Assembly (NCBI GenBank): GCA_963702005.1
Contig: OY969696.1
Location: forward strand, 1,120,001 to 1,184,000
Direction: 5' to 3'
DNA from: Candidatus Aminicenantes bacterium
GTDB lineage: Bacteria; Acidobacteriota; Aminicenantia; Aminicenantales; JAFGBC01
DNA: 64,000 nucleotides
Under the pieces are notes generated by a model, which was not told the origin of the DNA, did no database searches, and saw only the letters and a list, made by a program, of their open reading frames with translations. Shown here one piece after another: positions 20,939 through 51,850 of this stretch (position 1 is its first letter; each line of letters starts with the position of its first letter). The translations under genes and the position numbers were made by a program.

Positions 20939-20968
20939 TTGACGGGCGTCCTCGGCCGGCGATATAGT
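20939..20968 (+). promoter_or_regulatory. putative sigma70 promoter immediately before the helicase gene
   Basis: TTGACG-18 bp-TATAGT; in-frame GTG 6 nt downstream at 20975. Confidence 0.5.
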
Positions 20969-20974
20969 TTGGGC

Positions 20975-23900: not shown

Positions 23901-24214
23901 ATTTCGGCGCCTTCCCGCGGCAGGAGCTGTTCACCGCCAAGGAAGGCCGGCGCGTCCTGCGGGAGTTCACCGTCTGCGACGCGGCCGGACGCGCCTTCCG
24001 GGTGGACCGGATCGTCCTTGACGGGGAACGGGCCACCGTCATCGATTTCAAGTCGGGGGACGAGGCCGACCCTTCCCGCCATGCCGAAAAAAAGCGGGCC
24101 GACCGGGATCAAGTCCGCGCCTACCAAAAGCTCGTCGAAGGGGCGATGCCGGGAACCAAGGCGACCGGTCTGCTGGCCTACATCGATCAAGGAGCTTGGG
24201 AGGACGTCGAGTGA
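20975..24214 (+). CDS. addA: UvrD/AddA-type helicase-nuclease
   Basis: KASAGSGKT, AITFT, IDEFQDTS, VGDTKQAIYGFR, MSIHKAKGLGF, LYVALTRA, C-terminal VD…IDFKSG…QV.AY nuclease; start uncertain. Confidence 0.88.
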   Translation: MPSRTIKPAPGGTGRAPRVLTPEKALRFPEFVLLKASAGSGKTHALSLRFVQLLLADRVRTLAPADLRNILAITFTRNAAREMKDRILDWLKQCYRGDRAKSEEVLDIVSLGRDELPGRAERTIAAILSRYTDFQVETIDSFMAAVFKASAVDLGYSPDFEIVLDPSELVEYAFYRYLRRVSGRSGEGAVFRVLLEDILANLPQDAAFSWDPTELVLKKLVGLHGALAARPEELIVEDNREGRSRLQGAIAGAADDLAGRIADSGLEPNPRSQWRTRIEPAVRKARFADLVGASFKTLPVKTARGGGAAGAGEAVERSWRRLEGLVNEYKFLFARDFFHPYLTAYRAFAGSLDRVKRERGTVFLDDINKQLAGYIDRGIVPDIYFRLGDRIAHFLIDEFQDTSPVQWLNLRPLVENSLAQNGSLFIVGDTKQAIYGFRDADYRIMRWLEAGQDSFPSVEVEVRELAQSRRCHEAVLDFVKGIFLDKASRHENYAGIASLSGLTDFRQEVLDRDRRSGHVEYIVLEKSASGDEAEDEDAGGAVRPGGGRPDIGEFPERFEIQDRVRDLRARGYAYADIAILTYKNDNVVRVASWLNEVGIPFIPFSSLDIRKRGVIQEVLSLLLFLDSPPDDLSFASFLLGRVLAAKTVRDGPAFEPGHWHRFLFACRRAKESPLYVAFRKRYPDLWDKAFERLFKSVGYYPLYDLVTLAFRVFDVFALFPEEEAALVKLLEAIKDFEGKGRNDLREFLAYAGQGEGDASAWTIDVPSEIDAVKVMSIHKAKGLGFPAVILLLYGERFMPPEFFLGRERDGVRVYKINKDLALADERLKGIYEEAKTRESVNRLNTLYVALTRARSELHVIGVKGRTAGYPFDLLGTEGFASSGSRPPAPKAVPRPEPPAAETLRFNEAPEPTARPSDEPGWGRGVRRGELIHEILAGLEFLKGGWEADIGRIIEGLPLAAPDRPTAEEAGRVLVRYFGAFPRQELFTAKEGRRVLREFTVCDAAGRAFRVDRIVLDGERATVIDFKSGDEADPSRHAEKKRADRDQVRAYQKLVEGAMPGTKATGLLAYIDQGAWEDVE

Positions 24215-27109: not shown

Positions 27110-28447
27110 TCATCGCGACGGAGCCGGCCTGAACCCGGAGTCGGGAAGGACAATGCGCTGGGCGCGGCCTTTTTGGAACGCGTCCAAACGGAGGAGGTAA
27201 AGCCCGATGCCGGCCGCTCCTTGCATGAGGCCCGTCTGAGCAATCAGCAAATCAGGGCGAACCCGGTGCTCGGCCTGGACCCATTTCATCCGGCCGTCCT
27301 CGACGGTCGCCGCGGCCAGCAACTTGTCCGTGACGCGATCGCAAAAAGCCCGGTCGGCGGGGTCGCGGCCGACTTCAAACAGGCTTAGGAAAAAATCGGC
27401 GACCCCGGCCAGGCCGCAGCAGAGCCCGGCGTTGTTCCAGAACCCGGCTGTCTGCGTCTCGGGAATACCGCTGGCCGTGATGCCGCGGGCGCTTTTACGG
27501 ACCCAATCCATCCAGGACGGATCTTTCGCGGCGAGCGACAGCCGGTAGAAGAGCTGGGCCGTTCCGACCGGGCCGTGGCACCAGCCCAAATAATAAAGAT
27601 CTTTGCCGTCCGGTTCGTGGTGGAAGATGAGGCAGACGTCCCCTTCGGTTTTGGCGACGGAGAGGAGATAGCGCGCCCCGGCCAAGGCCGCGTCGAGGAA
27701 CTCTTTTTGTCCCGTCCGCTCATAGAGGCGGGCCAGGAAAAAAGCGATCCCGGCCGTTCCGTGGGAGAAGTTCGGCATCAGGCGGGGGAATTCGGGATCC
27801 ATGGCCCAGTCCAGCCCTCCGCCCTTGGGCCGGCCCACTTCGACCAAACGACGCCCGGCCTTGATCGCGAGGTCGATTCCATTCGGGTCGCCGAGCTCTT
27901 CGGCGGCGTAGAGGAGGAACAACCCGGTCCCGGCGGTCCCGCTGATGATGTCCGTGACAGGACCCCATTGGACGCCCGCTCCGGCCGGAGCGGCCCCGGA
28001 CCGGATCTTGTCCAAGGCCCGCAGGAATCCGCGCCGATATCGTTCATCCCCGCTAGATTTAAAGACCTCTTCGAGAGTGAACCCGATCCCGGCCACGCCT
28101 TCATAGAGGCCGGCGCCCGTCTCGTCCTCGAGCCGGGCTAAAAGGTCGTCGGCGCCGGCCTTGGCTTTATCGAGAGCCGCCGGATCGCCCGTCGCCGCGT
28201 GGAGCTCGAGGAAGAATAGGATAACGCCCGGCGTGCCCGCGTAGAGAGAGGCGCCGACGGACTTCGGATCGGCCGGGTCCGATGGCCAAGCCAGGCCCTT
28301 TTCCGTCTTGACCTGGACGGAGTCCAGCCAGCGGGCCGCTTTAAGGGCGGCGTCCAGCGCGCGGGTTTCGGCCGCGGATAGGGCGGAGCCCACGACCGAA
28401 AAGAAAATCGCGGAGAGGATGATCTTGACAAGCGGCTTCGACGGCAT
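27110..28447 (-). CDS. exported LanC-like (lanthionine synthetase C family) protein
   Basis: GGAGGT RBS; signal peptide ending ALSA; repeated GxxG motifs (LYAGTPG, LYEGVAG, ISGTAG, FSHGTAG, WCHGPVG, LCCGLAG, MQGAAG). Confidence 0.85.
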   Translation of the reverse strand: MPSKPLVKIILSAIFFSVVGSALSAAETRALDAALKAARWLDSVQVKTEKGLAWPSDPADPKSVGASLYAGTPGVILFFLELHAATGDPAALDKAKAGADDLLARLEDETGAGLYEGVAGIGFTLEEVFKSSGDERYRRGFLRALDKIRSGAAPAGAGVQWGPVTDIISGTAGTGLFLLYAAEELGDPNGIDLAIKAGRRLVEVGRPKGGGLDWAMDPEFPRLMPNFSHGTAGIAFFLARLYERTGQKEFLDAALAGARYLLSVAKTEGDVCLIFHHEPDGKDLYYLGWCHGPVGTAQLFYRLSLAAKDPSWMDWVRKSARGITASGIPETQTAGFWNNAGLCCGLAGVADFFLSLFEVGRDPADRAFCDRVTDKLLAAATVEDGRMKWVQAEHRVRPDLLIAQTGLMQGAAGIGLYLLRLDAFQKGRAQRIVLPDSGFRPAPSR

Positions 28448-28564
28448 TGCGATTACCTCCGGCCTGGCCCGGCGTCCCCCGGCGAGACCGAGCCTGGGAA
28501 AGATCCGTCTCATGGGGAATATTTAATACCAACGGTCTCGGCAGATCAATAGGGGAACCGGGCC

Positions 28565-35862: not shown

Positions 35863-37062
35863 ATGAACAGGTCTCATAACATCACCATGCTCGGCGCCGG
35901 CCTAATCGGAACGTTCTACACGATGACGATCCAGGGCCGGAGAAGCCGCGACCGCGTCGGAGCCGTCTGCGCCCGGACCGAAGAGGAAGCCGGCGCCTTC
36001 GCCCGCAAATGGGGAATTCCGCGCTGGACGAGCGACCTCGCCCAAGCCGTCGAGGACTCGGCGACCGACCTCGTCGTCGTCGGGCTGCCCAACGACCTCC
36101 ACAAGGAGGCCGTCCTCCTGGCGGCCCGCGCCGGCAAGCCGGTCCTGTGCACCAAGCCCCTGGGCCGGACGGCGGCCGAAGCCCTGGAGATGCTCCAGGC
36201 CGTCCGGAAGGCCGGGGTGTTCGCGGGCTACCTGGAGGACCTCGTCTATACGCCCAAGACGCTCAAGTCGCTGGCGTCGGTACGGGCCGGCGCCCTGGGC
36301 CGGATTCTCTGGGTCCGCTCCCGCGAAACCCATCCCGGCCCCCACAGCGCCTGGTTCTGGGACAAGGCGATCGCGGGCGGCGGAGCGATCGTCGACATGG
36401 GCTGCCACTGCATCGAAATTATCCGGAGCTTCGTCGGGAAAGACGTCCGGCCGGTCGAGGTCCTCTGCACGGCGGACACGCTCGTCCACCCCATCGCGGC
36501 CGAGGACTCGGGGATCGGGCTGATTCGCTTCGAGAACAGGGCCATCGGCCAGTTCGAGGTCAGCTGGACCTTCCGGGGCGGCATGGACCTTCGCGACGAA
36601 GTCGCCGGCAGCGAGGGGACGATCTGGCTCGATCATTTCCTGAGGACGGGGTTCGAGATGTTCACGGCCGTCGGCTCGGGCGGTTATGTCGCCGAGAAGG
36701 CGGAGGGGGAGAAGGGGTGGCTGTTTCCGGTCGGGGACGAGGTCCACGAGCTCGGCTACGTCGACATGTTCGGCGACATGTTCGACGCCTTGGACGAGGG
36801 CCGGCCGCCCCGGGAAACCTTTTTCGACGGGTACGTCGTCAACGCCATTATCGACGCCTCTTACGCGTCGGCCGCTTCCAAGCGCTGGGAACCGGTTCGG
36901 CTCGACGAGTGGGACGCCGCCGCCGATAAGGCCGGGGTCGAAAGCATCCGCGGCGAGAAGCGGGGACCCATCCTCATCAAGAAGGAGCGCATGCCCGACG
37001 GGCGGACCAAGCTCATCTTCAAGGATCCCGCGACGGGCGCGATCACGGAGAAGATCGAGTAG
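35863..37062 (+). CDS. Gfo/Idh/MocA family oxidoreductase
   Basis: GAGLIG Rossmann motif, [16 protein letters not shown]. Confidence 0.92.
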
Positions 37063-40000
37063 CGAAGCGACAAGGATCTTCGCCCAGGATCTTATCGAGC
37101 GTTCCGACCAGGAGGTCGGCGTCGGATTCCGTGAAGGCGAGCGGCGGCTTGATCTTGAGGACGTTGCGGAAGGGGCCGTCCGTGCTCAGGAGGATCCCCT
37201 CCTCGCGCATCCGCTCGGCGACGTAGCCTGCCGCCGACGTCGCCCGGGCCCGGCTCTCCCGGTCAAGGACGAGCTCGACGCCCAGGAACAGGCCCAGCCC
37301 CCGCACGTCTCCGACGACGGCGTGCCTTCCCATGAGCCCTTCCAGCCCGGCCTTGAGACGGGCGCCGACCTTTTTAGCTTTGTCCTGGAGCTTCTCGTCT
37401 TCGATGACGTCCAGGACGGCCATCCCAGCGGCGCACGAGACGGGATTCCCGCCGTAGGTGTTGAAATATTCCATGCCGGTCACGAAGGCGTCCGCGATCT
37501 CGGGGGTCGTCACGACCGCGGCCAGCGGGAAGCCGTTCCCGATCGGCTTTCCCATGGTGATGATGTCGGGCACCACATCCTGGGTTTCGAAACCCCAGAA
37601 GCGATCCCCCACCCGTCCGAACCCGACCTGGACTTCGTCGGCAATGCAGATGCCGCCCGCCCTCCTGACATAGCGATAGGCGTCTTTGAGAAAGCCCGGG
37701 GGAAGGAGGATTTGGCCGCCGCAGCTCAGCAGGGATTCGTGGATGAACCCGGCGATCTCCCTCCCCTCGGCCCGGGCCCGCTCGATCGCTTCCCGGACAT
37801 GGGCCGCGTAGCGGGCGCCTGCGTCCGGGTCTCCGGTCCTGTACGGCCCCTGGTAGAGGTCGGGCATCGGGGCGACCTGGGTGTGCGGCGGCCTTCCGGG
37901 GCCGCCCGGTCCGTTGAATTTGTAGGGGCTGATCTCGATGAGCGAGGTCAGATGGCCGTGGTAGGCCCCGTCCAGGACGACCATGTCCCTCCGGCCCCTG
38001 AAGTTCCGGGCCAGCCGCAGCGCGAGGTCGTTGGCCTCGCTCCCCGAATTGACGATGAAGCAAACGCGAAGCGGCTCGGGGCAAAGCCCGGCGAGCCTCC
38101 GGGCGTAGCGGACCAGGTTGTCGTGGAGGTAACGTGAGTTCGTGTTCAGGACGGCCAGCTGGCGGTGGACCGCCTCCACGACGCGGGGATGGCTGTGGCC
38201 GACGTGGGGAACGTTGTTGACGCCGTCGAGGTAGACGCGGCCTTCGTGATCGTAGAGATACTCCATGAAGCCGCGGACGATCTTGAGGGGTGTCCGGTAG
38301 GAGATGCTCAGGGACCCGCCGAGGTGGCTCTTGCGCAGCCGGATGATCTCCTCGGGCTCGAGCCGGACGGGGCGGCTTTCCTCCGCGGGAAGGCCCAGGA
38401 TGGGGCCGGGATCCGGGCAGAGGCTGAGCCAGACCTCGCGCTGGGAGGGGCGGGCGACGCCCGGGTAGTTCCCCTCCAGCCCCAGCGGATCCAGGATGAC
38501 TTGAAAATGGAGATGGGGCGGCCAGTCGCCGTTCTCGGGAAAGGGACCGATCGCGCCGATCCGCTCTCCCTTGCGGACGAGCCGTCCCTTGCTGAGCCCC
38601 GCGATCGATTCCCGGCCCAGATGGCCGTAGAGGGTCTGGAAGCGAAGAGGCCCTTGGGCCGTTTCGACGTCGTGCCCGAGGATGACGGTCGGTCCGTAAT
38701 CCTGGCGGGCCGCGTTGTCCACGGCGCTGAGGACGACGCCGTCCAGGGGGGCCAGGACCGGCGTTCCGGGCTCCGCGAAGATATCGATCCCCAGGTGAAC
38801 GGTCCGCCCTTCGGCCAGGGGGCGGCCGGAGGGCCGGAAGGCCTTGGAGGTGTAAATGATGCGCGCCTCGTCGTAGCGCCCGATGCCGACCTCGCTCCCC
38901 TTCTTTCGCATCTCCCGGAATAGGAGCTCGCTGAAGGCTCGGGTGTCGTCGACGATCCGGGGATCCTCGACGAGAAGACTCCCGATGCTCAGGTCGAAGA
39001 CGGTCTTTCGGACATCTTTAAGCGGGACGGCCGTGACCGGACCGAACGAGGGGCGTCCGGATTCGAGCCAGGCCGAGAAGCGCGCTTCCTCGGGGCAGGG
39101 CGTCAAGCCGCAGGCGCGCCGGAACACGGCCCGGGCGAACCTGGGGTGTATTTCGCGGAGCCGATCGAGCAGCTCCCAGGCCTGGCGGTTGGAGATGAAG
39201 AGATAATCGTTGTCGGGCCGGAGCGACGTCTGATGGGCGCAGATCGCGACGCTCATGAGGAGGCGGAGGACGATCAGGGGAAAGAGCAGGTCCAGCTCGA
39301 GCTCGGACAGCGGCGCGACCGAATGGTAGCCCGCGACGATACGGCCGGCGGCGGCCAGCGGATCATCCTTGTCGAGCATTGCGTAGGCGCAGACGACGGC
39401 CGGCTCGGCCAGCCGATAGGAGCGGACCATGTCGCCGAAGTCGATGATCCCGGCGATCGAGCGCCGTCCGAACGCCTCGGGCCGAGTGTCCGGGGGAGTG
39501 ACGATGATGTTGTAGTCGTTTCCATCGTTGTGGACGGCGCCGAGGGCGAGGTCGCCGAGGCGCGGCCCGGCGGAGCTTTCGAACTCGGACAAGAAGCGAT
39601 CGACGAGGGCCCGCCGGACCGGGTCGTCGATGAGGGGTTTGTAGGCGCGAACGGTCTCAGGGCCGGATCGCAGGTCCCAATGGAAGTCCGGACGGAGGCA
39701 GGGCCGGTCGAAGCTCCCCAGGGCTTGGGCGAGGCGGGCCGTGAACGCGCCGAGCTCGAAGAGAAGCCCGGCCGAGTGGGGGCGGGCCGCGGCCAGGGGG
39801 ACGCCTTCAATATAGGAGAGAAGGCGGACGGCGTGGGCCGCGCCGTCGGGGCCGGCCGTCTCGGCGATCCAGCGGCCTTCGCGGTCGGCGATGAGACGAG
39901 GGGCGAGGGGAGGACCGCCCCCTCCGGCCAGATGGTAAAGGGCGGCGTTCTCGGCCTCGAGGTTCGCGACATCCTCGCCGGGGTTGGCAATCTTGAGGAC

Positions 40001-40150
40001 GAACTTGCCCCCGGCCGAGGTCCGGAGCAGGAAGTTTTGATCCCGCTCGCTGGGGAGCTCCTCGGCGCGGACGGATAGGCCGTAGAGTCTAAGGGCCAAT
40101 TCCTCGGCTTTATCCCGGCCCAGGCGGGGCGCGCGTTCGACGCTCGGCAT
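37043..40150 (-). CDS. fusion of APH-like kinase, M23 peptidase-like domain and class III aminotransferase/phospho-lyase
   Basis: [21 protein letters not shown]; HLGIDIF…LYGHL…PPHLHFQ; [32 protein letters not shown]; start ATG 40150 after AAGGAG. Confidence 0.9.
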
Positions 40151-40368
40151 CCGTATCGCCTTTCGCTCCTTGAGTCGCCTGTAAAGGTTAAACTCCGGGG
40201 CGAGATCTGTCAAGGCCGGTTGAAATCGCTCGGTTTTTTCGAGGCGGGCGCCGGCGGCGGAGACGAGGCTTGCATCGAAAATGAGACGGCCGTCGTAGAA
40301 GAGATGTCCGTTGTATTCGGCCGGCGTTTCCCTTACAATAAGCGGTCTTACAGGCGGAGAGATCGATC

Positions 40369-41965: not shown

Positions 41966-42655
41966 ATGAGGATCACGCGCCTCCATGGCTGGCGGAAGAC
42001 GCCCAGGGAGGCGGCCATCCTCCAGTCCGAGCTCCGGGAGCGGCTGGCAAGGAAGCCATTAGTCAGGCCGGTCCGTTTGGTCGCCGGCGCCGACGCGGCC
42101 TATGACAAACGGACGAAACGGACCGCCGGCGCCGTTTGCGTCTTAAGCCTTCCCGATTTAGCCGTCGTCGAGGAGCGGATCGCAATCGCCGAGATACCTT
42201 TTCCCTATGTTCCCGGCCTCCTGACCTTCCGCGAAGGCCCCGTTCTTCTCGAATGCTTCGCCCGATTGGAGACCGTCCCCGACGCCGTTCTTTTCGACGG
42301 CCAGGGGATCCTCCATCCCAGGCGGATGGGGATCGCCGCACATCTCGGTCTGTTCCTCGACCTCCCGACGGCGGGATGCGCCAAGAGCCGCCTTTACGGG
42401 ATATGCGAGGAGCCCGGAGCCCGACAAGAATCCAGGTCGCCGGTCCTGGATCGGCGAGGCGAAATCCTCGGAGCCTGCCTGAGGACCCGGTCCAACGTCA
42501 AGCCGGTTTTCGTCTCTCCGGGTCACGCCATGGATGTGGACTCCGCTGTCGCCCTCGTCCTCGCTTCCTGCTCCCGCTACCGGATTCCCGAGCCGCTCCG
42601 CCGCGCACACCGGCTCGCGGAATCCGCGCTCAAGGGGAGGCCGGGGCCGAAATGA
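41966..42655 (+). CDS. nfi: endonuclease V (deoxyinosine 3' endonuclease)
   Basis: AGADAAY, FPYVPGLLTFREGP, FDGQGILHPRRMGIAAHLG, PVFVSPGH, YRIPEPLR. Confidence 0.95.
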   Translation: MRITRLHGWRKTPREAAILQSELRERLARKPLVRPVRLVAGADAAYDKRTKRTAGAVCVLSLPDLAVVEERIAIAEIPFPYVPGLLTFREGPVLLECFARLETVPDAVLFDGQGILHPRRMGIAAHLGLFLDLPTAGCAKSRLYGICEEPGARQESRSPVLDRRGEILGACLRTRSNVKPVFVSPGHAMDVDSAVALVLASCSRYRIPEPLRRAHRLAESALKGRPGPK

Positions 42656-43505
42656 ATTTCAAAAAGGCGGCGGGCGCCGAGCGGTCCGCTTTGAAGCGGA
42701 ATTCGTAGGCGGGAACCGAAGCGACCAGGTCCTTGCAGAGCAGGAGGATGCGGGGCGTCAACGCCTCCTCGTACCAGGGGATGGAACAGAGCGGAAGAAG
42801 ACGGTCCAGGGCGTCGCGCGGCGCGACCGGCAGTATGCGGTTGGCGCGTCCGTGCTTCAGGAAAACAATGGCCGCCAGCGGCGCGCTCCCGTTCCGGGCG
42901 ATGCCCGCGGTCCCGGCCCAGGGGGTGCCAAAGGCCTTGAAGCCCGACCCGGCCCGGCGAAGGACCATTCTCTCATCGCTCAGCACTTTTCCTTCCCGGC
43001 CGGCTTCGAACAGGCATGCCAACGTGCTTTTTCCGGCGCCCGAAGTGCCGGTGAAAATCACGGCCCGGCGGTCGAGGATGAGCCCCGCCGCATGGGCTAA
43101 AAGGCCGTCCCGGCCGGCCAGATGATACATCATCAGCAGCTGGTCGAGGGGATAGCCGAGAGGCCAGGGGTCGCCCCAGAGCCGGACCCGTCTCGCGCCG
43201 CGATCGAAGCGGGCGACCCAAAGCGGCTCGGGATGGCGGTCCGGATGGAGGCTGATCCAACGGCTTTCCCCCTCGCCGCGCATAGACCAGGATTCCTCGG
43301 TGTCGAATAGCTTGTTGAGATGATCGAGCTTGGGCAACGGACCACGGACCAAGCGGAGGCGGATATCGGCGGGCCGGTTGCCGGGGAAGCCGGTCCGGAA
43401 GAAGGGACGATAGAGCGGATCATGATTCCTGAACGAGACGGAAGGATTCGAGGAAACGGCGAAGGCGACCCCGGCGATCTCCAGACGCGGGCGATACGCC
43501 TTCAT
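42630..43505 (-). CDS. HPr kinase-related P-loop protein (ScmC / lasso-kinase-like)
   Basis: GLLAHAAG…IFTGTSGAGKST…LSDE…AFGTPWAG. Confidence 0.8.
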   Translation of the reverse strand: MKAYRPRLEIAGVAFAVSSNPSVSFRNHDPLYRPFFRTGFPGNRPADIRLRLVRGPLPKLDHLNKLFDTEESWSMRGEGESRWISLHPDRHPEPLWVARFDRGARRVRLWGDPWPLGYPLDQLLMMYHLAGRDGLLAHAAGLILDRRAVIFTGTSGAGKSTLACLFEAGREGKVLSDERMVLRRAGSGFKAFGTPWAGTAGIARNGSAPLAAIVFLKHGRANRILPVAPRDALDRLLPLCSIPWYEEALTPRILLLCKDLVASVPAYEFRFKADRSAPAAFLKFISAPASP

Positions 43506-43539
43506 CCGGACGGGCGGCCGGGAGGGGACGCCCAGCGGG

Positions 43540-43722
43540 TCAGCTCCCGGGCCGGGCGCAGTAGTTGCCGGGGTAGCAGGGGGTGACGCCCTTGCCCGTC
43601 GGCCCCCCCGAGCTCAGCTTGCATCCGATGCCCAGGGTCTGAGTGCCGTCGGCGATGGCCACGATCCGCATCGCGGGTTTTTCGTACGGCTTTTTATTCC
43701 GCAGGGGTTGAGTTGGGTTCAT
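43540..43722 (-). CDS. putative RiPP precursor peptide (60 aa)
   Basis: GGAGG RBS inside the rSAM 3' end, TGA-ATG junction; leader KKPYEKP; Gly-rich core with 3 Cys ending PGS. Confidence 0.8.
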   Translation of the reverse strand: MNPTQPLRNKKPYEKPAMRIVAIADGTQTLGIGCKLSSGGPTGKGVTPCYPGNYCARPGS

Positions 43723-44820
43723 TCATGCCTCCGTTATGTCTTGCTGGAGTCTTTCGTATCGAAGCCGGCCCAGGGCGCAAAGGAACTCCGAGGGCACTCG
43801 ATCGTCGCCGTTTTCAAGCTCGAAGAAGCCGGGGCAATATCCGCACACCAGTCTTTGCCGGCAGCCGGCGCACTTGAAGTCCGGGCCGGGCCCGGCTTCC
43901 CGGATCCGGGGCAGGACTTCGTCCCATCCCGTCCGGAATCGCCCGCTCCGAAGGGGGTAAGCGATCTTCCGGGCCATGAGGCAGGGATAGAGCTCCCCGC
44001 AGGGATCGATGTGGAAGGTCGTCAATCCCGCGCTGCAGGAGTACAGCTCTTCCGGGCCCGGAACGGCCCGGAAGCGGTCCAGGAACTCGCGCCATTCCCG
44101 GACCCGGGCCGGGTCGGCGAACTCCGCGGCAACCGCCTGTTCCGGGGAGATCCGATAGGCGAGGGGCGAGCGGTCGCCCGTCAACCGGGGAAAAACGGAG
44201 GCGTCGACGCGGAAATCGACGCCCATCCTCCCGGCCAGCTCCTCGACGGCGGGGAACTCATGGGCGTTCAACGTCATGATAACGCTTTTAACCGCTACTC
44301 GGATTCTGCGGCGTTTGAGCGTTTCGACCGCCTTCAGGGCGCGGGCGAAGGACCCCGCGACGCCCGTGATCCGATCATGGGTTTCCGCCGTGGCGCCGCA
44401 CAGGGTGATTTCGACCGCCCGGGGCGGGAGGTCCCCCAGCAGGGCCGCCGTTTCTTCCGTCAACAGCGTCCCGTTCGTGAACAGGGTGACGAAAAAGCCG
44501 TTCGTCTTGATGTGGGAGTAGATCTCGGCGAAATCCTCCCTGAGCAGAGGCTCCCCGCCGGTCAGCAGTAAAAACAGGCAGCCGGCGTCCTTGATTTCGT
44601 CGATGATCTCTTTCCAGCGGCCGGCGCTCAATTCCCGTCCCGCCGGCGCGCTGCGCGGATTCTTATCGCGGGCGTAGCAGTGGACGCAGCGGAGGTTGCA
44701 GCGATGGGTCAGGGCGATGCCGCCCGAAAAGGGAATCCGCATCCGGTCGATGGTCCGGGACAGGGAACTCCAGTATTCCTCGTCGCCCGTCCGGGAAAGG
44801 GGTCCGCAGTTCGAGCTCAT
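43723..44820 (-). CDS. radical SAM/SPASM domain peptide maturase
   Basis: CNLRCVHC, LTGGEPLL, FTNGT; SPASM CSAG…YPC…CAGC.....CGYC…C. Confidence 0.93.
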   Translation of the reverse strand: MSSNCGPLSRTGDEEYWSSLSRTIDRMRIPFSGGIALTHRCNLRCVHCYARDKNPRSAPAGRELSAGRWKEIIDEIKDAGCLFLLLTGGEPLLREDFAEIYSHIKTNGFFVTLFTNGTLLTEETAALLGDLPPRAVEITLCGATAETHDRITGVAGSFARALKAVETLKRRRIRVAVKSVIMTLNAHEFPAVEELAGRMGVDFRVDASVFPRLTGDRSPLAYRISPEQAVAAEFADPARVREWREFLDRFRAVPGPEELYSCSAGLTTFHIDPCGELYPCLMARKIAYPLRSGRFRTGWDEVLPRIREAGPGPDFKCAGCRQRLVCGYCPGFFELENGDDRVPSEFLCALGRLRYERLQQDITEA

Positions 44821-45107
44821 GGCCTTTCCTGAATCAGGTCGTTCTCCAGGAGCCGCCCGACGAATTCGGCCGCGTCTCTGCCCGCCCGCTCCCGGTCGAC
44901 CTCGAAACGGTCCAGGACGGCGGCGATGAGCTCGTCGAGCGTCGGCTCTCCGTCCAGACGCTGCCAGATGAATTCGGCCAGCTCGTTCAGGATGAAGACG
45001 TTCTGCATCTGGCTGGGCCGGCCGCAGACCGGGACCAGGAAGGTCTCGTCGGCGATCCGGCGGACCGTGACGGTATCCTTTTTCCGTAAGCGGCGGGCGT
45101 CCGTCAT
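44817..45107 (-). CDS. PqqD family RiPP recognition element
   Basis: RRIADETFLVP…LNELAEFIWQRLDG…L..RFEVD…D...FV..L....LI; ATGA overlaps at both ends. Confidence 0.92.
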   Translation of the reverse strand: MTDARRLRKKDTVTVRRIADETFLVPVCGRPSQMQNVFILNELAEFIWQRLDGEPTLDELIAAVLDRFEVDRERAGRDAAEFVGRLLENDLIQERP

Positions 45108-48100
45108 TTAAACCTCAGCGCGGGATCTCCGATCAGGTTGAAGATATTCAGCAGATAGAGCCTTCCGCCCATGGATATGTAGTTCTTCATCGCCCTGAGC
45201 CAGGCTTTCCCCAAGCCTCTCTCGTTGGCGCCGTAGACGGCCTTGTACAACTCTTCGGCCAGCTGCCGGGTCTGAATGTAGGTCGAGGCGCCGGTGGGGG
45301 CTACGGCCGCGGCGATTCCGCCGCCGTCCTTCAAAGCCAGCCCCTCCGCCAGGCTCAGCGATCCCGGGACCTCGAAGCGGCCCGCGACGCAGGTCAGAAG
45401 GACCATGATCGGCAGCCTGGTTCCGTTCCGGAGGGAGGGGAGGTCGCTGACGTTGAGAATGTTTTCGCCGGCCAGCTGGTCGATGCCGCCGTGACCCAGA
45501 TAGTTGACCAGGGCCGGGTTGGCGTTGAGTCCGGCGATGATCTGCGATCGGACCTCATCCGCGTGGAAGCCGTTGAGAAGATAGATCCGCTGCAAGGAAT
45601 AGCCGCTGATCTGCTTGATCAGGATTTCGCTCCCCTGGCGGAAATTTCCGGCATCGTCGGGATTGTCCGCGATCATGATCGCCCGTTTCGGCCAGGAACT
45701 GTTGTCGCTCTCGTAGGCCTTGATTTTCTTGACCGCGACGGCGAGCTCCTCCCCGGAGACGACCGGCAGCCGTCCGACCACGATTTCGGGAACGCCGTCC
45801 TCGCCCTTAACATCGCCGAACGCCCTGTCCGCGGCGAACAGGCCGTCCGGCGTCTTGGCCAGAATGGGGGGAATAAGGTTGTCGCCGAAGCCGAGGTAGT
45901 TTTTATAGTCGTAGGTGCCTTTGCCGGCCAGGACGACGGTTTCGGGCCGGTTCCCCGCGCCCTTCGCGTAGGCGAAGGCCAAGAAGTCCTTGATGGCCAG
46001 CGGACTCTGCAAACCCCAGTTGAAAGCGTCGTAGATTTCCTCGACGGTCACGACCTGGCTTTCAAGGCCTTTTTCCTTGCGATAATTCGCCAGACTCCGG
46101 GCGGCGGCCTTGAACTCCTCGGGGGCGATGACCAGGTATTCGGCGAAATGGTCGGCCTGTTTCAGCGTCGGCGCCGCGGCTGCGGTCATCGAGAAGGGCT
46201 GAAGGGCGGCGGACAGGCCGGAGATCAGGTAGCGGTTTTGGGAGGAGGCCGGGACGAAGGCGAGCCGGCCGCGGTTGTCGACGACGATCCCGACGCAGAC
46301 TTTCGGACGGTCGGGTTTGGTCACGTCCAGCACCAGAGCTTGGGCGTCGGTCAATCCCTCGACGGAGATGACGGGATTGCCGTCTCCGCGGCAAAGTAGG
46401 CGATTGTCCTTGGTCCGGTAATATCTCGGGTAGCTCAGGTCGAAGGAGTTCACGTAGAAGACGCTGTAGGGGGCGCCGACGTCCAGCAGCCCCTTGACGG
46501 TGATCGTGTTTTTCCCGTCCTTGAGCAGGGAGGGGACGACGGACATTTGGAATGTATACGATTCGGTTCCGTTCCACCAGCCGCTGCCGACCTCGATCTT
46601 GTTCAAGGAGACCTTGGCGTGGTGGTCCTGGACGGATGCGGTATCCGTCGCGCCCCTCAGGAGCGCCGTCAACGTGGCCGCGCCGGTCGTGGCCCGGCCG
46701 GGCACATCGACGGCGAAGGATTTGTCGTCGGTCCCGGCCACGATGTAATTCCAGAACCAGAAGTCCTCCTGGGCATTCTTGGCCAAGGCGGTCGCCGCGT
46801 ATCGGTTGTCCTCGAAATGGGCCGAATCCTGGAAGGTCGGGTGGGACTCGGTCGGAGTCGCGGCGCCCAGCCGGACGGCCTCCATGACGAGGCCGTTCCC
46901 TTCCTCCAGCCAGTAGACGTTCCGGTCCGTGTAGGCGCTGTCGGGCGCTTGGCCGTAAAAATAGATGCCGGCGCCGCCGGCTTCGGCCAGCCAGGCGACG
47001 GGTTCTCCCCGGCTGGTCAAGCTCAGCCTTTGATTGAGGATGAGCCACTGGACCTGCTGGGCCGATTGAGCCAGGCTGTTGGCGATGGAAGCGGCGTCGA
47101 GACGAACCAGCCCTTCGGTCTTGACGGCGATCCGGATCCGGTCATGGGATCCGGCCGCCGGGGCCGGCACGCCCTGTTGGAGCACCCTGAGCCGGTCCTG
47201 GACGCGCTTGGTTTCGAGCTCCGAGGGGCGATAAGTCCACTTCCGGAAGCCGGGAATCGAGCTGGGGACTTCCGCGCCTTTTGGAGCGGCGAAGGCGATC
47301 GGCCGCTGGGATGGCGCGGTCGAGTCGCCGAAAGTCACCTTGTAGGGGCCGTAGATGCGCGTCCGCCCGCTCGCGTCGACTTCGGTCAGCCGGTAGACCA
47401 CGGGCCTTCCGATGGGAACCCCGGGGTCCTCCAAGCGGTAGATGCCGCCTAGCGGCGATTCGTAGAGGGCCGGCAGGAAGGAGGGATTCACCAGCTCGAA
47501 TTGAGCCGTCTCCGGGTTCTGACGCCAGAGGAAAAAGCCGGCCGTTCCGATTTCGGTGCCGGTCCGCCACTCGACCGTCGGCCGCCCGCCGTCCATGTTC
47601 GATTCGAGAGAGGTCACGGCGATCCAGGTCGGAACATCGCCCCCGGCCCCTTCGGTCGCGGCCAGCTCGCAGAGCGGTCCGTAGTTAAAGGTGGCGACGC
47701 CCGTTTCGTCGGTGAAACTGGCCCTCGTGCCGTTCGACGAGGGCATCCCGGTCACGGGAAGGCGCTGGCCGCTGTAGGTCGGCGTGACGTCGACGGCATA
47801 GGACATCGTGGCGTCTGCGTTAGAGCCGCCGACCGTCCCCGGGTTCCAAACGATGTCCCCGGTGCCGCCCAAGGCCGGCTCGCCGACGAGCGACCCCTGG
47901 GATGCGACCCAATGTTGAGCATAGACGACCCCTCCGCCCGGCACGTTAGCGGTGATCGGGCTGATGCTCGAGAACGTGATGGCGCGCGGGGTCGGGTTGA
48001 AGATAGTGACTTCGACCCGGACGCGGGTCGTGGCGCCCGCGGTGGGAGGGTTGGGGCCGGAAATGTAGCTGAGATTCTGGGTCAAGAACGGCTTGGGCGG

Positions 48101-49105
48101 CGCTCCCATGCCGTCCGTCGGCAAGTAAATTCGCTGGGTGTATGCCTGGGGCTGAGAAGTGGGCGGCGGGCTGGCGGCGTTGAAGTCCCCCACATAGAAG
48201 ATGCCGTAGTTAGAGCCGCCCGAGCTGGTTTCGGTGTAAAGGAGGGTCGCTCTCCAGACGCCGGTATCGGAGGCCATCGAGTTGGACTCGTAGCCGGTGA
48301 TGGGCCTGTTCTGCCAGACCGTGGATCCCGAGCCGCCGTAGCTGCCGGTAAAGGTCCGTGTTCGGCTGGCGTAGGTAATCGTGCAAACGCCCGGGGTTGG
48401 ATTATCGCCGTCCCAGTCGTTCCAATCGACGACGCAGCCGGATGTGACGTAAGGGTAAAGGGTCGTCGTTACCGTATTGACCCCGCCATAGGTTCGTTCT
48501 CCGACCGGGACGAACGTGTAACCATAGATGTTGATTTCGGTCCCGCCGGAGGTCTCATCGCCGTCATCGGCGCTGATCCCGTAGCCGTTGCAGTCGTCGC
48601 CGGTGGTTACGGCCGATGACGTGTCGACGACCAGCCGCCAATGTCCGGCAACGGGCGAGGGGATGGGAGCAGGAGTAGTGCCGGGACCGAGAATCTGCCA
48701 GCCGTTGTTTGTGCCCGCGGTAGCGCTCCCCGTGAAGGTCGCCACCGAGGTTCCGCTGGGGTTGTATAGCGTGTATCTGCAGGAAGTGTTCCACGATCCT
48801 CCGCTTTGCCAATCGAACCGGTTGGTGGTGCCCCTCCCTACATCGGCGTCGAAAAGGCGCACGCGCAATTGGCTCAGCCCGGGAGGCACCTCGATATAAT
48901 ATTGGTGGTAAGTGTTCATCCCCCCGGCCTGGGCCGAGCTGATGTAATCGCCGTAGCTGGTGGGGGCCCCGGACCCGAGCTGCTGCAGCACCGCGGTGGT
49001 GCCGGTTGTGGCGGCGCGCCCCGGATCGGGAAAGAATAAAAGGAAAAGGATCGGTACGCCGAGAAGCGCTCTAAACCTCACCTGGGATATTCGAATTTTT
49101 TTCAA
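45104..49105 (-). CDS. large exported C25 (gingipain/PorU family) cysteine peptidase
   Basis: GGAGG RBS with TTG start, signal peptide; EYLVIAP, VVLAGKGTYDY, VGRLPV, catalytic NYLGHG and LTCVAG, NLIGDPAL C-terminus. Confidence 0.9.
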   Translation of the reverse strand: MKKIRISQVRFRALLGVPILFLLFFPDPGRAATTGTTAVLQQLGSGAPTSYGDYISSAQAGGMNTYHQYYIEVPPGLSQLRVRLFDADVGRGTTNRFDWQSGGSWNTSCRYTLYNPSGTSVATFTGSATAGTNNGWQILGPGTTPAPIPSPVAGHWRLVVDTSSAVTTGDDCNGYGISADDGDETSGGTEINIYGYTFVPVGERTYGGVNTVTTTLYPYVTSGCVVDWNDWDGDNPTPGVCTITYASRTRTFTGSYGGSGSTVWQNRPITGYESNSMASDTGVWRATLLYTETSSGGSNYGIFYVGDFNAASPPPTSQPQAYTQRIYLPTDGMGAPPKPFLTQNLSYISGPNPPTAGATTRVRVEVTIFNPTPRAITFSSISPITANVPGGGVVYAQHWVASQGSLVGEPALGGTGDIVWNPGTVGGSNADATMSYAVDVTPTYSGQRLPVTGMPSSNGTRASFTDETGVATFNYGPLCELAATEGAGGDVPTWIAVTSLESNMDGGRPTVEWRTGTEIGTAGFFLWRQNPETAQFELVNPSFLPALYESPLGGIYRLEDPGVPIGRPVVYRLTEVDASGRTRIYGPYKVTFGDSTAPSQRPIAFAAPKGAEVPSSIPGFRKWTYRPSELETKRVQDRLRVLQQGVPAPAAGSHDRIRIAVKTEGLVRLDAASIANSLAQSAQQVQWLILNQRLSLTSRGEPVAWLAEAGGAGIYFYGQAPDSAYTDRNVYWLEEGNGLVMEAVRLGAATPTESHPTFQDSAHFEDNRYAATALAKNAQEDFWFWNYIVAGTDDKSFAVDVPGRATTGAATLTALLRGATDTASVQDHHAKVSLNKIEVGSGWWNGTESYTFQMSVVPSLLKDGKNTITVKGLLDVGAPYSVFYVNSFDLSYPRYYRTKDNRLLCRGDGNPVISVEGLTDAQALVLDVTKPDRPKVCVGIVVDNRGRLAFVPASSQNRYLISGLSAALQPFSMTAAAAPTLKQADHFAEYLVIAPEEFKAAARSLANYRKEKGLESQVVTVEEIYDAFNWGLQSPLAIKDFLAFAYAKGAGNRPETVVLAGKGTYDYKNYLGFGDNLIPPILAKTPDGLFAADRAFGDVKGEDGVPEIVVGRLPVVSGEELAVAVKKIKAYESDNSSWPKRAIMIADNPDDAGNFRQGSEILIKQISGYSLQRIYLLNGFHADEVRSQIIAGLNANPALVNYLGHGGIDQLAGENILNVSDLPSLRNGTRLPIMVLLTCVAGRFEVPGSLSLAEGLALKDGGGIAAAVAPTGASTYIQTRQLAEELYKAVYGANERGLGKAWLRAMKNYISMGGRLYLLNIFNLIGDPALRFK

Positions 49106-49350: not shown

Positions 49351-49465
49351 TTCTCTTAATATTTAAAAAAATCATCCCTTACATGTTATAATGACCGGGC
49401 TCGTTCGCCAGGACGGGCCCGGGTGGCGCAGCGACCGTTCCGGATCGAAACGAGGAGGACTCAGG

Positions 49466-51850
49466 ATGCGACGGTTCGGGATCATAATAAGCTTCGGGTT
49501 TCTCGTTTTAGCCTCATTTTTGTTGAGAGCGGGCTTCCATCCATTGCCCGCCGCCGCCGAGGAAATGGCCGCTCCGGCCAATCCCGTTCCCAATCCGTCT
49601 TTCGAGGACGTCAAGGACGACAATCCGATCGGCTGGACTCGTGAGACTTGGCAGCCCAAGGCAGAGTTCGGGCTGGAGGCGGCGGCCCATTCCGGGCAGA
49701 AGAGCGTCCGCATCTCATCCAAGGAAGGCGCCGACGCGTCTTGGGCGGCCGTCGTCCCGATCAAGCCTTTCGCCCGATACAAGTTGAGCGGCTGGATCAA
49801 AATCAAGGACCTGGACCCGGCCACGGGCCGGGGAGCGCTCTTTAACATCCAGGGCATGGATGTGGCGACCAAGCCCCTTCGCGGGACTCAGGTTTGGACC
49901 CGGGTCGCGGTCGAGTTCGACTCCGGCGCCAACGACGCGGTATTAGTCAATTGCCTGTTCGGCGGATGGGGAAAGTCGACCGGAACGGCTTGGTACGACG
50001 ACGTCAGGCTCGAACTCCTTTCCGTGCGGGCGCTCAAGCCCGAGGCGACGATCGACGCATCCCTTATCCTCGCTCCCCTTTCGCCCCTGATATACGGCCA
50101 GTTCATCGAGCACTTGGGCCGCTGCATCTACCAGGGAATCTGGGCCGAGATGCTCGAGGACCGCAAGTTCTATTACCCGGTAGGGAGCCAGGACTCGCCC
50201 TGGAAAGCCGTCGGGGACGCCGCCAACGTCAGGATGAATCCGATCCTTCCTTACACGGGCGTCCAAGCCCCCGATGTCCGGCTCAAAGGAAACGGCGAGA
50301 CGGGCGGCATCGCCCAAGAAGGGTTGGCCGTCATCAAGGGAAAACCCTATACGGGCCGCATCGTCCTGGCGGGCGACCCGGGCGCCGCGCCGGTCGAGGT
50401 CAGTCTCGTCTGGGGAAGCGCCCCCGAAGCCCGCCAGACGGTCGCGATCATGGACTTCAAGACCGATTATAAGACCTATCCGCTCGCCTTCACGGCCGGC
50501 GAATCGAGCGAAAACGCCCGGCTCGAAATCACGAGCCGCGGAATCGAGGCCTTCCGGGTCGGGACGGTCTCGCTCATGCCGTCCGACAACGTCGAGGGCT
50601 TCCGGCCCGAAGTCCTGAGCGTTCTGCGCGAGCTCAACGCCCCCATCTACCGCTGGCCGGGCGGCAATTTCGTCAGCGGCTATAGCTGGAAGGACGGGAT
50701 CGGCGACCGGGACCGCCGGCCGCCCCGCAAGAACCCGGCCTGGCAGGGCGTCGAGCACAACGACGTCGGGATCCACGAGTTCATGGATTTCTGCCGCCTT
50801 CTCAAGACCCAGCCCTACATCACGGTCAACAGCGGGCAGGGGAACGAGACGCTGGCCGCCGAGATGGTCGAATACGCGAACGGCGCGGCTTCGGCGCCGA
50901 TGGGCGCGCTCCGGGCGCGCAACGGCCGGGCCGAACCCTGGGGCGTTTCCTGGTGGTCGATCGGGAACGAGATGTACGGCGACTGGCAGCTCGGCCACAT
51001 GCCCGTCCAGGACTATGTCTTCAAGCACAACCGGTTCGCCGCGGCGATGCGGGCCAAGGACCCTTCGATCAAGCTCGTCGGCGTCGGCGCGGTCGGCGAG
51101 TGGAGCGAGCGCATGCTGGCTTTCTGCCGGGACTCGATGAACGCCATCAGCGAGCACTTCTACGTCGGCGAGCGGCCCGGCCTGCTCAGCCACGTCAACC
51201 AAGTCCCGGCCCAGATCAAGCGGATCGCGGACGCCCATCGCCGCTACCGTCTGACGATCGGAGCCCTGGAGGGCAAGGCCGTCCCGATCGCCCTCGACGA
51301 GTGGAATTACTGGTACGGCCCGGACCTCTACGGAGAGATCGGGACCCGCTATTTCCTCAAGGACGCGCTGGGGATCGCGGCCGGCATTCACGAGTACGCC
51401 CGGCAAAGCGACATGTTCGTCATGGCCAACTACGCCCAGACGGTCAACGTCATCGGGGCGGTCAAGACGACAAAGACGGCGGCCGCCTTCGACACGACCG
51501 GCCTCGTCCTCAAGCTCTACCGGGCCGAGTTCGGATCGCTCCCGGTCAAGGTCACGGGCGCCCCGGCCCCGCTCGACGTCGCGGCGGCCTGGCGGGAGGG
51601 CCGCAAAGTCCTGACCGTGGCCGTCGTCAACCCGACCAAGCAGAGCCAGACCCTGCCGATTTCGTTCAAGGAGATCAAGGTCCCGGCGACGGCCCGGCTG
51701 TTCCTGATCACGGGTCCGGACGAGGGCGCCTACAACGAGCCCGGGAAGGATCCCGCGGTCAAGATCGAGACGACGGAGAATGCCCCCTTCGGCTCGAAGC
51801 TGACCTTGCCGCCCCTGAGCATTTCCCTCTACGTGATCGAACCGAAATAA
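49466..51850 (+). CDS. GH51 alpha-L-arabinofuranosidase with N-terminal CBM-like domain, exported
   Basis: GAGGAG RBS; NPSFE…WYDDV CBM-like domain; YGQFIEHLGRCIY, RWPGGNF, IGNEMYG, LDEWN, AQTVNV. Confidence 0.92.
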   Translation: MRRFGIIISFGFLVLASFLLRAGFHPLPAAAEEMAAPANPVPNPSFEDVKDDNPIGWTRETWQPKAEFGLEAAAHSGQKSVRISSKEGADASWAAVVPIKPFARYKLSGWIKIKDLDPATGRGALFNIQGMDVATKPLRGTQVWTRVAVEFDSGANDAVLVNCLFGGWGKSTGTAWYDDVRLELLSVRALKPEATIDASLILAPLSPLIYGQFIEHLGRCIYQGIWAEMLEDRKFYYPVGSQDSPWKAVGDAANVRMNPILPYTGVQAPDVRLKGNGETGGIAQEGLAVIKGKPYTGRIVLAGDPGAAPVEVSLVWGSAPEARQTVAIMDFKTDYKTYPLAFTAGESSENARLEITSRGIEAFRVGTVSLMPSDNVEGFRPEVLSVLRELNAPIYRWPGGNFVSGYSWKDGIGDRDRRPPRKNPAWQGVEHNDVGIHEFMDFCRLLKTQPYITVNSGQGNETLAAEMVEYANGAASAPMGALRARNGRAEPWGVSWWSIGNEMYGDWQLGHMPVQDYVFKHNRFAAAMRAKDPSIKLVGVGAVGEWSERMLAFCRDSMNAISEHFYVGERPGLLSHVNQVPAQIKRIADAHRRYRLTIGALEGKAVPIALDEWNYWYGPDLYGEIGTRYFLKDALGIAAGIHEYARQSDMFVMANYAQTVNVIGAVKTTKTAAAFDTTGLVLKLYRAEFGSLPVKVTGAPAPLDVAAAWREGRKVLTVAVVNPTKQSQTLPISFKEIKVPATARLFLITGPDEGAYNEPGKDPAVKIETTENAPFGSKLTLPPLSISLYVIEPK

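Follow-up and report, generated by a model that had tools for sequence, protein, structure and literature searches.

A conserved small peptide ending in serine, encoded beside PqqD-like, radical SAM/SPASM and HprK-like proteins, as the probable precursor of a new RiPP family

The window analysed here, a stretch of 64,000 nucleotides from a Candidatus Aminicenantes bacterium (contig OY969696.1), carries at positions 43540-43722 a small open reading frame (ORF) whose translation joins a leader of the lasso peptide type to a three-cysteine core ending in serine. The question raised by this locus is whether the ORF encodes the precursor of a ribosomally synthesised and post-translationally modified peptide (RiPP) and, if so, which enzymes act on it. 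The ORF is probably the precursor (A peptide) of a new RiPP family which depends on a RiPP precursor recognition element (RRE) and on a radical S-adenosylmethionine (rSAM) enzyme, its invariant C-terminal Ser being the target of the kinase encoded next to it. That the peptide is a genuine substrate of the RRE and the rSAM enzyme is very likely, and an earlier note, made from the letters of this DNA, had already placed it in an RRE-dependent, rSAM-modified setting; genes for a PqqD-type RRE and an rSAM enzyme with a SPASM domain do adjoin the peptide gene. Overlooked at that stage were an HprK/ScmC-like kinase immediately downstream and a co-conserved C25 peptidase upstream.

A small gene conserved in sequence and position

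The 60-residue translation given in the earlier note is reproduced exactly at 43540-43722, followed by TGA, and its coordinates stand with the strand, minus, now added. As had been described, the window peptide has a core with three Cys (C34, C49 and C55), no Asp or Glu (none past residue 25) and a Gly-Ser end, and the gene has a ribosome-binding site of its own, GGAGG. The N-terminus is Lys-rich. ORFs of at least 40 aa number 105 in 16 kb of this GC-rich DNA. Since short ORFs are common here, a 60-aa ORF is unremarkable by itself and the reality of the gene rests on conservation. On that ground the small ORF is a genuine gene, conserved and syntenic.

Relatives were found in two ways. A word-index protein search with the peptide gave two, of 79% and 55% identity, and a profile built from three sequences, run exhaustively against 1.84 billion protein cluster representatives, gave 60 at E≤1e-3, including 10 that reach E≤1e-10. 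YxxP is present in 58 of these 60 representatives, GCK in 56 and a final Ser in 55 (Gly-Ser in 46), with a final Thr in two more; the other three are two sequences diverging after GCK as if frameshifted and one unrelated protein of 1530 aa. Within the window the peptide profile has a single match, this gene (E=1.2e-19), and thus no second precursor copy. Neither Pfam nor NCBIfam matches the window peptide, and further members (six against NCBIfam, five against Pfam) gave one sub-threshold match, to QH_gamma, which was rejected (E=0.062, 13.2 bits against a cutoff of 50, in one of six peptides).

The genomic setting was surveyed with the kinase-like protein as anchor. An alignment of 22 of its homologues (A2) was used as a pattern scan over one genome per GTDB species, yielding 191 pattern-matching stretches, 165 of which encode a kinase relative; the best 80 of these 165 are the loci studied, so that the kinase is present at every locus by construction. 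The rSAM, PqqD and C25 genes were sought there by tblastn with the window proteins and the peptide by motif search. A homologous small ORF stands at the same position in 73 of the 80 loci, in agreement with the earlier expectation of syntenic homologues, and usually ends 13-150 nt before the kinase start. The seven loci without a peptide match comprise three with no upstream DNA (L009, L011, L059), two in which the contig end cuts the peptide, leaving its C-terminal half visible (L074, L077), and two whose copies look degraded (L026, L027). The rSAM gene was found in 70 loci, PqqD in 66 and C25 in 61, with order and kinase strand almost always as in the window; the exceptions in order are C25 lying downstream in L001 and L023, and PqqD and rSAM lying downstream in L060. 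Depositors' labels, tallied over the 80 loci, are Nitrospirota/Thermodesulfovibrionales (32), Aminicenantes (14), Desulfobacterota-type (14), Planctomycetota (6), other Acidobacteriota (5), 'Clostridia' (3), Chloroflexota (2) and four single labels, all loci but one being labelled as metagenome-assembled genomes.

Some copies depart from the pattern. The YxxP part of the leader is lost at L026:966-1088, the copy at L027:3256-3402 ends early, and the peptides P0140 and P0141 diverge immediately past GCK. Decay of the cassettes or faulty assembly may lie behind these copies.

Alignment of 74 peptides (A3), the window copy included, shows Y13, P16, C34, K35, C49 and C55 to be invariant, and K15, L30, G33, G59 and S60 to be conserved in at least 90%. 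The YxKP, GCK and terminal Gly-Ser motifs foreseen in the earlier note are therefore family features. The C-x5-C spacing that it also named is correct for the window copy, which shares it with ten other sequences (11/74); as a consensus it gives way to C-x4-C (60/74), with x6 in two sequences and x2 in one. Across the family the N-terminus is 26% Lys and the leader follows the consensus Y-E-K-P-x-L-R-x-I-E-L-A-A-E-E-V-L-A-V-G-C-K, with a near-fixed distance from Tyr to Cys-Lys (the motif spans 22 residues in 58/74, 23 in 16/74). After Cys-Lys comes a variable stretch of 10-18 residues rich in Gly, Ser, Ala, Pro and Thr, followed by the tail, and exactly two further Cys are present in every sequence. 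Beyond the last Cys stand five residues in 47/74 and six in 24/74; the final residue is Ser in 73 sequences and Thr in one, with a Gly-Ser end in 69. In 10 related pairs that could be aligned without gaps (2 of 12 were dropped for indel misalignment), differing codons comprise 121 synonymous and 85 non-synonymous changes, an excess of synonymous change which argues for purifying selection on the protein.

In the window the peptide gene is the fourth of five on the minus strand, ordered C25 peptidase, PqqD, rSAM/SPASM, peptide and kinase, with stops and starts overlapping or abutting. The features are as follows.

45104-49105, minus strand: secreted-type protein, 1333 aa, with a C-terminal peptidase C25 domain, gingipain/PorU-like (PF01364, 257 bits, residues 990-1331)
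44817-45107, minus strand: PqqD-family protein, 96 aa, stand-alone RRE (PF05402, 61 bits)
43723-44820, minus strand: radical SAM/SPASM maturase, 365 aa (PF04055, 97.9 bits)
43732-43728, minus strand: GGAGG, ribosome-binding site within the final rSAM codons, 5 nt upstream of the ATG (43722-43720)
43540-43722, minus strand: probable precursor peptide gene, 60 aa and TGA (translation and 74-sequence alignment)
43686-43669, minus strand: leader motif Y13-E-K-P16-A-M18, within the peptide gene
43626-43618, minus strand: G33-C34-K35, within the peptide gene
43578-43576, minus strand: C49, within the peptide gene
43560-43558, minus strand: C55, within the peptide gene
43548-43543, minus strand: C-terminal G59-S60, within the peptide gene
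42630-43505, minus strand: HprK/PEPCK-fold P-loop protein, 291 aa, ScmC-like, putative peptide Ser kinase (fold match and weak NCBIfam matches)

The stop codon of the C25 gene overlaps the PqqD start, the rSAM TGA (43725-43723) abuts the peptide ATG in the same frame with no gap, and the kinase starts 34 nt past the peptide stop codon. Both flanking genes, endonuclease V (41966-42655) and an arabinofuranosidase-like gene (49391-51850), lie on the opposite strand, and the operon thus consists of these five genes. The abutment of the rSAM stop and the peptide ATG suggests translational coupling. The same in-frame junction is seen in L001, L003, L006, L008, L016, L022 and L068, all of the window's clade, and in loci of the other clade with coordinates compared the rSAM and peptide genes overlap, for example by 11 nt in L018 (rSAM end 7780, peptide start 7770); both arrangements would be compatible with coupled translation of enzyme and substrate.

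Promoter and terminator scans across the operon stayed at background level. A GC-rich hairpin at 43510-43559 (minus) takes in the stop codon of the peptide gene and the 34 nt that separate it from the kinase gene; the fold of 101 nt reaches -48.2 kcal/mol (z=-2.17), and 7 of 200 shuffles fold equally well. On this weak evidence, the hairpin may serve, downstream of the precursor gene, to stabilise the transcript or to attenuate it.

The cassette enzymes and a putative pathway

None of the operon proteins passes a curated NCBIfam cutoff (200 bits for HprK_rel_A, 125 for ScmC, 100 for ScmD, 400 for ScmE and for ScmF, 420 for PorU), and the enzymes are described here from motifs, folds and conserved residues. 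The rSAM protein carries CxxxCxxC at C41/C45/C48, and its seven SPASM cysteines (C262, C280, C317, C320, C326, C329 and C348) are invariant in 52 sequences; it has no fused N-terminal RRE. Its AlphaFold2 (AF2) model, with a predicted local distance difference test (pLDDT) score of 91.7, is nearest to the solved folds of SkfB, SuiB and CteB (Foldseek, 2.5e-16 for SkfB and 3.9e-14 for CteB), then to BlsE of blasticidin S biosynthesis, PqqE and anSME. As modelled, the fold together with the cysteines fixes the type of enzyme, not its chemistry. Its NCBIfam matches all fall far below cutoff, with 107 bits to ScmE, 82.3 to ScmF and 104 to the mycofactocin maturase, for which 265 are needed.

Matches of the PqqD protein to ScmD (30 bits), to the lasso PqqD chaperones and to PqqD are likewise weak and below cutoff. 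The RRE binding of the leader proposed in the earlier note was followed up by complex prediction, which lends it weak in-silico support: PqqD with leader residues 1-36 scores 0.54, the best control scoring 0.02. Runs share at least 79% of contacts, with a partner pLDDT of at least 60. In a benchmark of the score, 58 of 80 solved complexes attained this mark, as did 2 of 110 mismatched pairs. RRE-leader complexes are already among solved structures, so likeness to these could account for the pass.

For the kinase-like protein, at least 562 homologues are found at E≤1e-3. In the 22-sequence alignment an invariant His, the P-loop GxSGAGKS and, about 17 residues later, an Asp/Arg pair (D177/R179) are kept. 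Its AF2 model (pLDDT 90.6) matches PEP carboxykinase and HPr kinase/phosphorylase by Foldseek at E 7e-7 to 5e-4, the HprK structures 1knx, 1ko7, 1kkl and 1jb1 included, and NCBIfam gives weak matches below cutoff to HprK_rel_A (25.8 bits), HprK_rel_B and ScmC (15.8 bits). PF27840, named ScmC in the Atlas, is precomputed on nearly all of 120 listed kinase homologues, one of them 96% identical to the window protein, and is carried by 22-51% of members in the Atlas clusters of look-alikes. Searched against a local copy of Pfam, probably older than PF27840, the window kinase gave sub-threshold P-loop matches only.

The C25 protein begins with a segment resembling a signal peptide and reaches 242.8 bits with the PorU model, below its cutoff. 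The catalytic residues His1205 and Cys1239 are each kept in 54 of 55 homologues. Its residues 1-989 match no Pfam family at E≤0.01, and homologues at other loci range from 1300 to more than 2100 aa, with SdrD-B, DUF11, CarboxypepD_reg and disaggregatase-type repeats. For a pathway that works on a small peptide, the C25 protein is a very large partner, and one that resembles a surface protein.

A sixth conserved gene, for a SipW/archaeal-type signal peptidase I, lies directly past the kinase in 51-52 of the 80 loci (e.g. L018:8854-9396). Four copies tested against TIGR02228 (cutoff 51.85) score 72.5, 57.3, 47.7 and 43.1 bits, so that two pass. Its distribution follows the leader: among loci with room downstream, it occurs in 48 of 53 whose peptide reads 'AAEEVL-x-x-G-C-K' and in none of 15 with 'G-x-Q-T-L-G-x-G-C-K', the clade to which the window belongs and in which neither tblastn nor a profile at E≤1 detected such a peptidase in the window. 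Ahead of Cys34 stand A, G or S at -3 and G at -1. These small residues fit the signal-peptidase rule, so that in the majority clade the leader may be cleaved at G33|C34. In the SipW-type protein no N-terminal membrane anchor is obvious. Two roles are conceivable for it: leader peptidase, or signal peptidase reserved for the giant C25 protein.

From these components the following pathway can be proposed. The PqqD protein would, quite likely, bind the leader through Y-x-K-P-x-L, 21-22 residues before Cys34-Lys35, and present the peptide to its partner enzymes. YxxPxL is the conserved leader motif of lasso precursors (PMC10368454). The SPASM enzyme would modify the core, which is rich in small residues, and most likely do so through cross-links that start from the invariant cysteines; thioethers of the sacti or ranthi kind in particular are conceivable, at somewhat less than an even chance. 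The kinase would add a phosphate to the side chain of Ser60 while the precursor is still linear, much as HPr-kinase homologues act on the precursors of phosphorylated lasso peptides, and the phosphate may be a final decoration or a leaving group. All intact family members end in a hydroxyl residue, and the presence of the kinase next door to peptides ending in Ser or Thr gives the best account of a core that ends in Ser. Within lasso clusters, HPr-kinase homologues place a phosphate on the C-terminal Ser of the still linear precursor, with little specificity elsewhere in the peptide (PMC8498205), and such a kinase is accelerated by a lasso B1 RRE (PMC10368454). By this analogy, phosphorylation of Ser60 by the neighbouring kinase is marginally to be favoured.

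Leader removal would take place near G33|C34-K35. For the majority clade the co-encoded SipW-type signal peptidase I would be the enzyme. Because the SipW-type gene is absent from the window's clade, the task would fall there to the C25 peptidase, for instance by a cut behind the invariant Lys35, or to a housekeeping protease. Any specific cleavage site remains doubtful.

A more far-reaching reading is that the SPASM enzyme and the HprK-like kinase together build a Cys-cross-linked, C-terminally phosphorylated peptide tied to a giant secreted PorU-like C25 'sortase', which would process the peptide, join it to an acceptor on the surface or be regulated by it. The peptides would then found a new class of RiPP or peptide-derived cofactor, and RiPP chemistry would be linked to a system of surface-protein sorting or proteolysis, for which there is no described precedent. 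This reading is unlikely on present evidence.

Counter-evidence, alternative explanations and neighbouring genes

Several points weigh against the precursor-and-kinase reading. The complex score of 0.54 falls in the tool's own 'weak' band, and at scores of 0.60 or less are found only 7 of the 80 solved complexes together with both passing mismatches. The likeness of the kinase to HprK lies at the level of the fold (TM-scores 0.23-0.50), and among PDB sequences its profile finds matches at the P-loop level only (E=0.04 to 1jb1); the protein could have another substrate or act as an ATPase. As the curated models for rSAM, PqqD and kinase score far below cutoff, function cannot be transferred by equivalence. 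The 74-sequence alignment holds no conserved acceptor-like residue beside any Cys, a point in which many ranthipeptides differ. The partition of the SipW-type gene with the leader clades may be mere shared ancestry. Finally, the cassette has no exporter while the C25 protein looks secreted, which leaves a direct encounter of peptide and C25 unexplained.

The absence of an exporter also bears on one alternative, a cofactor-type pathway like those for pyrroloquinoline quinone (PQQ) or mycofactocin. Here the peptide would be a sacrificial scaffold, the SPASM enzyme would act on its invariant C-terminal residues, peptidases would excise a small fragment and the kinase would add a phosphate handle, the product being a small phosphorylated molecule of intracellular use and not a peptide natural product. 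A stand-alone PqqD with a SPASM rSAM is the architecture of PQQ and mycofactocin pathways, the mycofactocin maturase model is among the longest-coverage NCBIfam matches (residues 36-285; 17-313 in L018), clustering of conserved neighbours shows neither exporter nor immunity gene in the cassette, and outside the leader the strictest conservation lies at the extreme C-terminus. Three invariant Cys over 22 residues and the C-x4-C-x3-GS spacing, however, would exceed the needs of a C-terminal dipeptide scaffold, the score of 104 bits with the mycofactocin model stands against a cutoff of 265, and the conserved partner is a secreted surface protein rather than a dehydrogenase. This alternative is improbable.

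A further alternative keeps the kinase acting on Ser60 and gives the phosphate another fate. Phosphorylation would activate the residue for conversion to dehydroalanine, followed by attack of Cys55 to form a C-terminal lanthionine-like ring of 5-6 residues or by hydrolysis to a C-terminal Gly-amide, the rSAM enzyme acting on the other cysteines. Class III and IV lanthipeptides are known to be made by phosphorylation with subsequent elimination, and the spacing from the last Cys to the terminal Ser is tight (5 in 47/74, 6 in 24/74). The conserved genes of the cassette include neither a lyase nor a cyclase, however, the LanC-like gene of the window is 15 kb off and non-syntenic in related loci, and the sole experimental precedent for HprK-like RiPP kinases yields a stable phospho-Ser (PMC8498205). 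Activation of Ser60 is accordingly held to be quite improbable.

An ORF giving no modified peptide at all, either a secreted or lipoprotein-like small protein or a non-functional ORF between two real genes, could draw on the superficial likeness of the Lys-rich N-terminus and invariant Gly-Cys to a lipoprotein signal (lipobox) and on the frequency of short ORFs in this GC-rich DNA, but the invariant positions, the synonymous excess and the strict placement by the PqqD and rSAM genes render it most improbable. A signal or lipoprotein peptide was rejected on the would-be hydrophobic core, which is charged (R19 and D25 in the window copy; 3-4 acidic residues, in the AAEEVL motif, in 57/74).

Around the cassette, neighbourhood gene families were defined by all-against-all clustering of ORFs and taken as recurring when present in at least 6 of the 80 loci. 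The LanC-like protein (467 aa, 27113-28513, minus; PF05147, 137 bits) is not in these recurring families and is probably unrelated to the cassette. Elsewhere in the window, 37043-40213 (minus) encodes a 1056-aa fusion of an APH-type phosphotransferase, an M23 peptidase and a class-III aminotransferase, and 20939-27087 (plus) a UvrD-type helicase (1091 aa) beside a PD-(D/E)XK nuclease (964 aa), an AddAB-like pair. At one locus (L067:8966-10390) a second maturase, a 475-aa PqqD-like/radical SAM fusion, lies downstream of the kinase.

Comparison with known systems

A lasso peptide was rejected. Neither a cyclase nor a B2 protease is found among the 30 window ORFs covered by the Pfam scan (8 + 22) or the recurring families of the 80 loci, and no acidic acceptor is present: 34 of the 74 cores hold some Asp or Glu, at no conserved position, while the acceptor of a lasso macrolactam is expected at core residues 7-9. 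The view of the earlier note, that this is not a lasso peptide despite its leader, is borne out. The phosphorylated lasso peptides (paeninodin, pseudomycoidin, proteobacterial relatives, and BsfA of Bradymonas) nevertheless share with the window a leader of YxxPxL type and a PqqD-like RRE, B1 (PMC10368454). Their clusters likewise encode an HPr-kinase homologue, and their precursors end in a Ser that is phosphorylated in the linear form (PMC8498205). In contrast to these, the window cassette lacks the cyclase, B2 and the Asp/Glu at core 7-9 and has instead a SPASM rSAM enzyme and three invariant Cys, and its kinase reaches only 25.8 bits with HprK_rel_A (cutoff 200). If the proposed reading is true, HprK-type phosphorylation of a C-terminal Ser would extend beyond lasso peptides.

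Sactipeptides, ranthipeptides and the QhpC/QhpD system share the SPASM rSAM enzyme (the model being nearest SkfB, SuiB and CteB), a Cys-bearing core and an RRE-dependent leader. They differ from the window in that its RRE is a separate protein, that it has no conserved acceptor or repeated Cys motif, and that its C-terminal Gly-Ser and kinase have no counterpart there.

Components of the same types make up SynChlorMet (SCM; ScmC, ScmD, ScmE and ScmF, TIGR04248-04251), with a PqqD-like chaperone, SPASM rSAM enzymes and a ScmC-like P-loop protein; homologues of the window kinase carry PF27840 'ScmC'. By the TIGRFAMs description, the SCM cassette is not known to have an assigned substrate. The window cassette has one rSAM gene where SCM has two, and adds a co-conserved C25 gene, mostly a SipW-type peptidase too, and a clear precursor family. 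An SCM equivalog was rejected on the single rSAM gene and on scores of 15.8/125 bits for ScmC, 30/100 for ScmD, 107/400 for ScmE and 82.3/400 for ScmF.

Searches of the Creative Commons-licensed PMC and bioRxiv literature turned up no description of this cassette, of the peptide, or of a RiPP cluster with a SPASM rSAM, an HprK-like kinase and a C25 peptidase; SynChlorMet goes unmentioned there, and an HPr kinase appears with a radical SAM enzyme and a precursor peptide in the context of lasso clusters only. The same literature yielded nothing that links ranthipeptides to an HPr kinase or radical SAM RiPPs to Aminicenantes, and among the matches listed for ScmC and HprK-related kinases there were only unrelated acronyms. 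A 2025 survey of RREs (PMC12710340) makes no mention of kinase, Scm, C25 or HprK. Cassettes of PqqD, SPASM and ScmC type stand in family databases as 'probable peptide modification systems', and no experimental work on them was found.

For a large sister group of SCM, a substrate family is thus supplied, a peptide of 55-65 residues with six invariant residues and a fixed architecture, which makes a directly testable system. By depositors' labels the cassette is distributed over at least 10 bacterial lineages, mostly uncultured anaerobes. It also points to a strongly conserved and unexplained pairing of a RiPP pathway with C25 peptidases of very large size and secreted type, in Nitrospirota, Desulfobacterota, Aminicenantes/Acidobacteriota, Planctomycetota and others. 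Its types of component are familiar ones, the kinase family being represented in Pfam; the precursor family is a clearly defined candidate for a new family of RiPPs.

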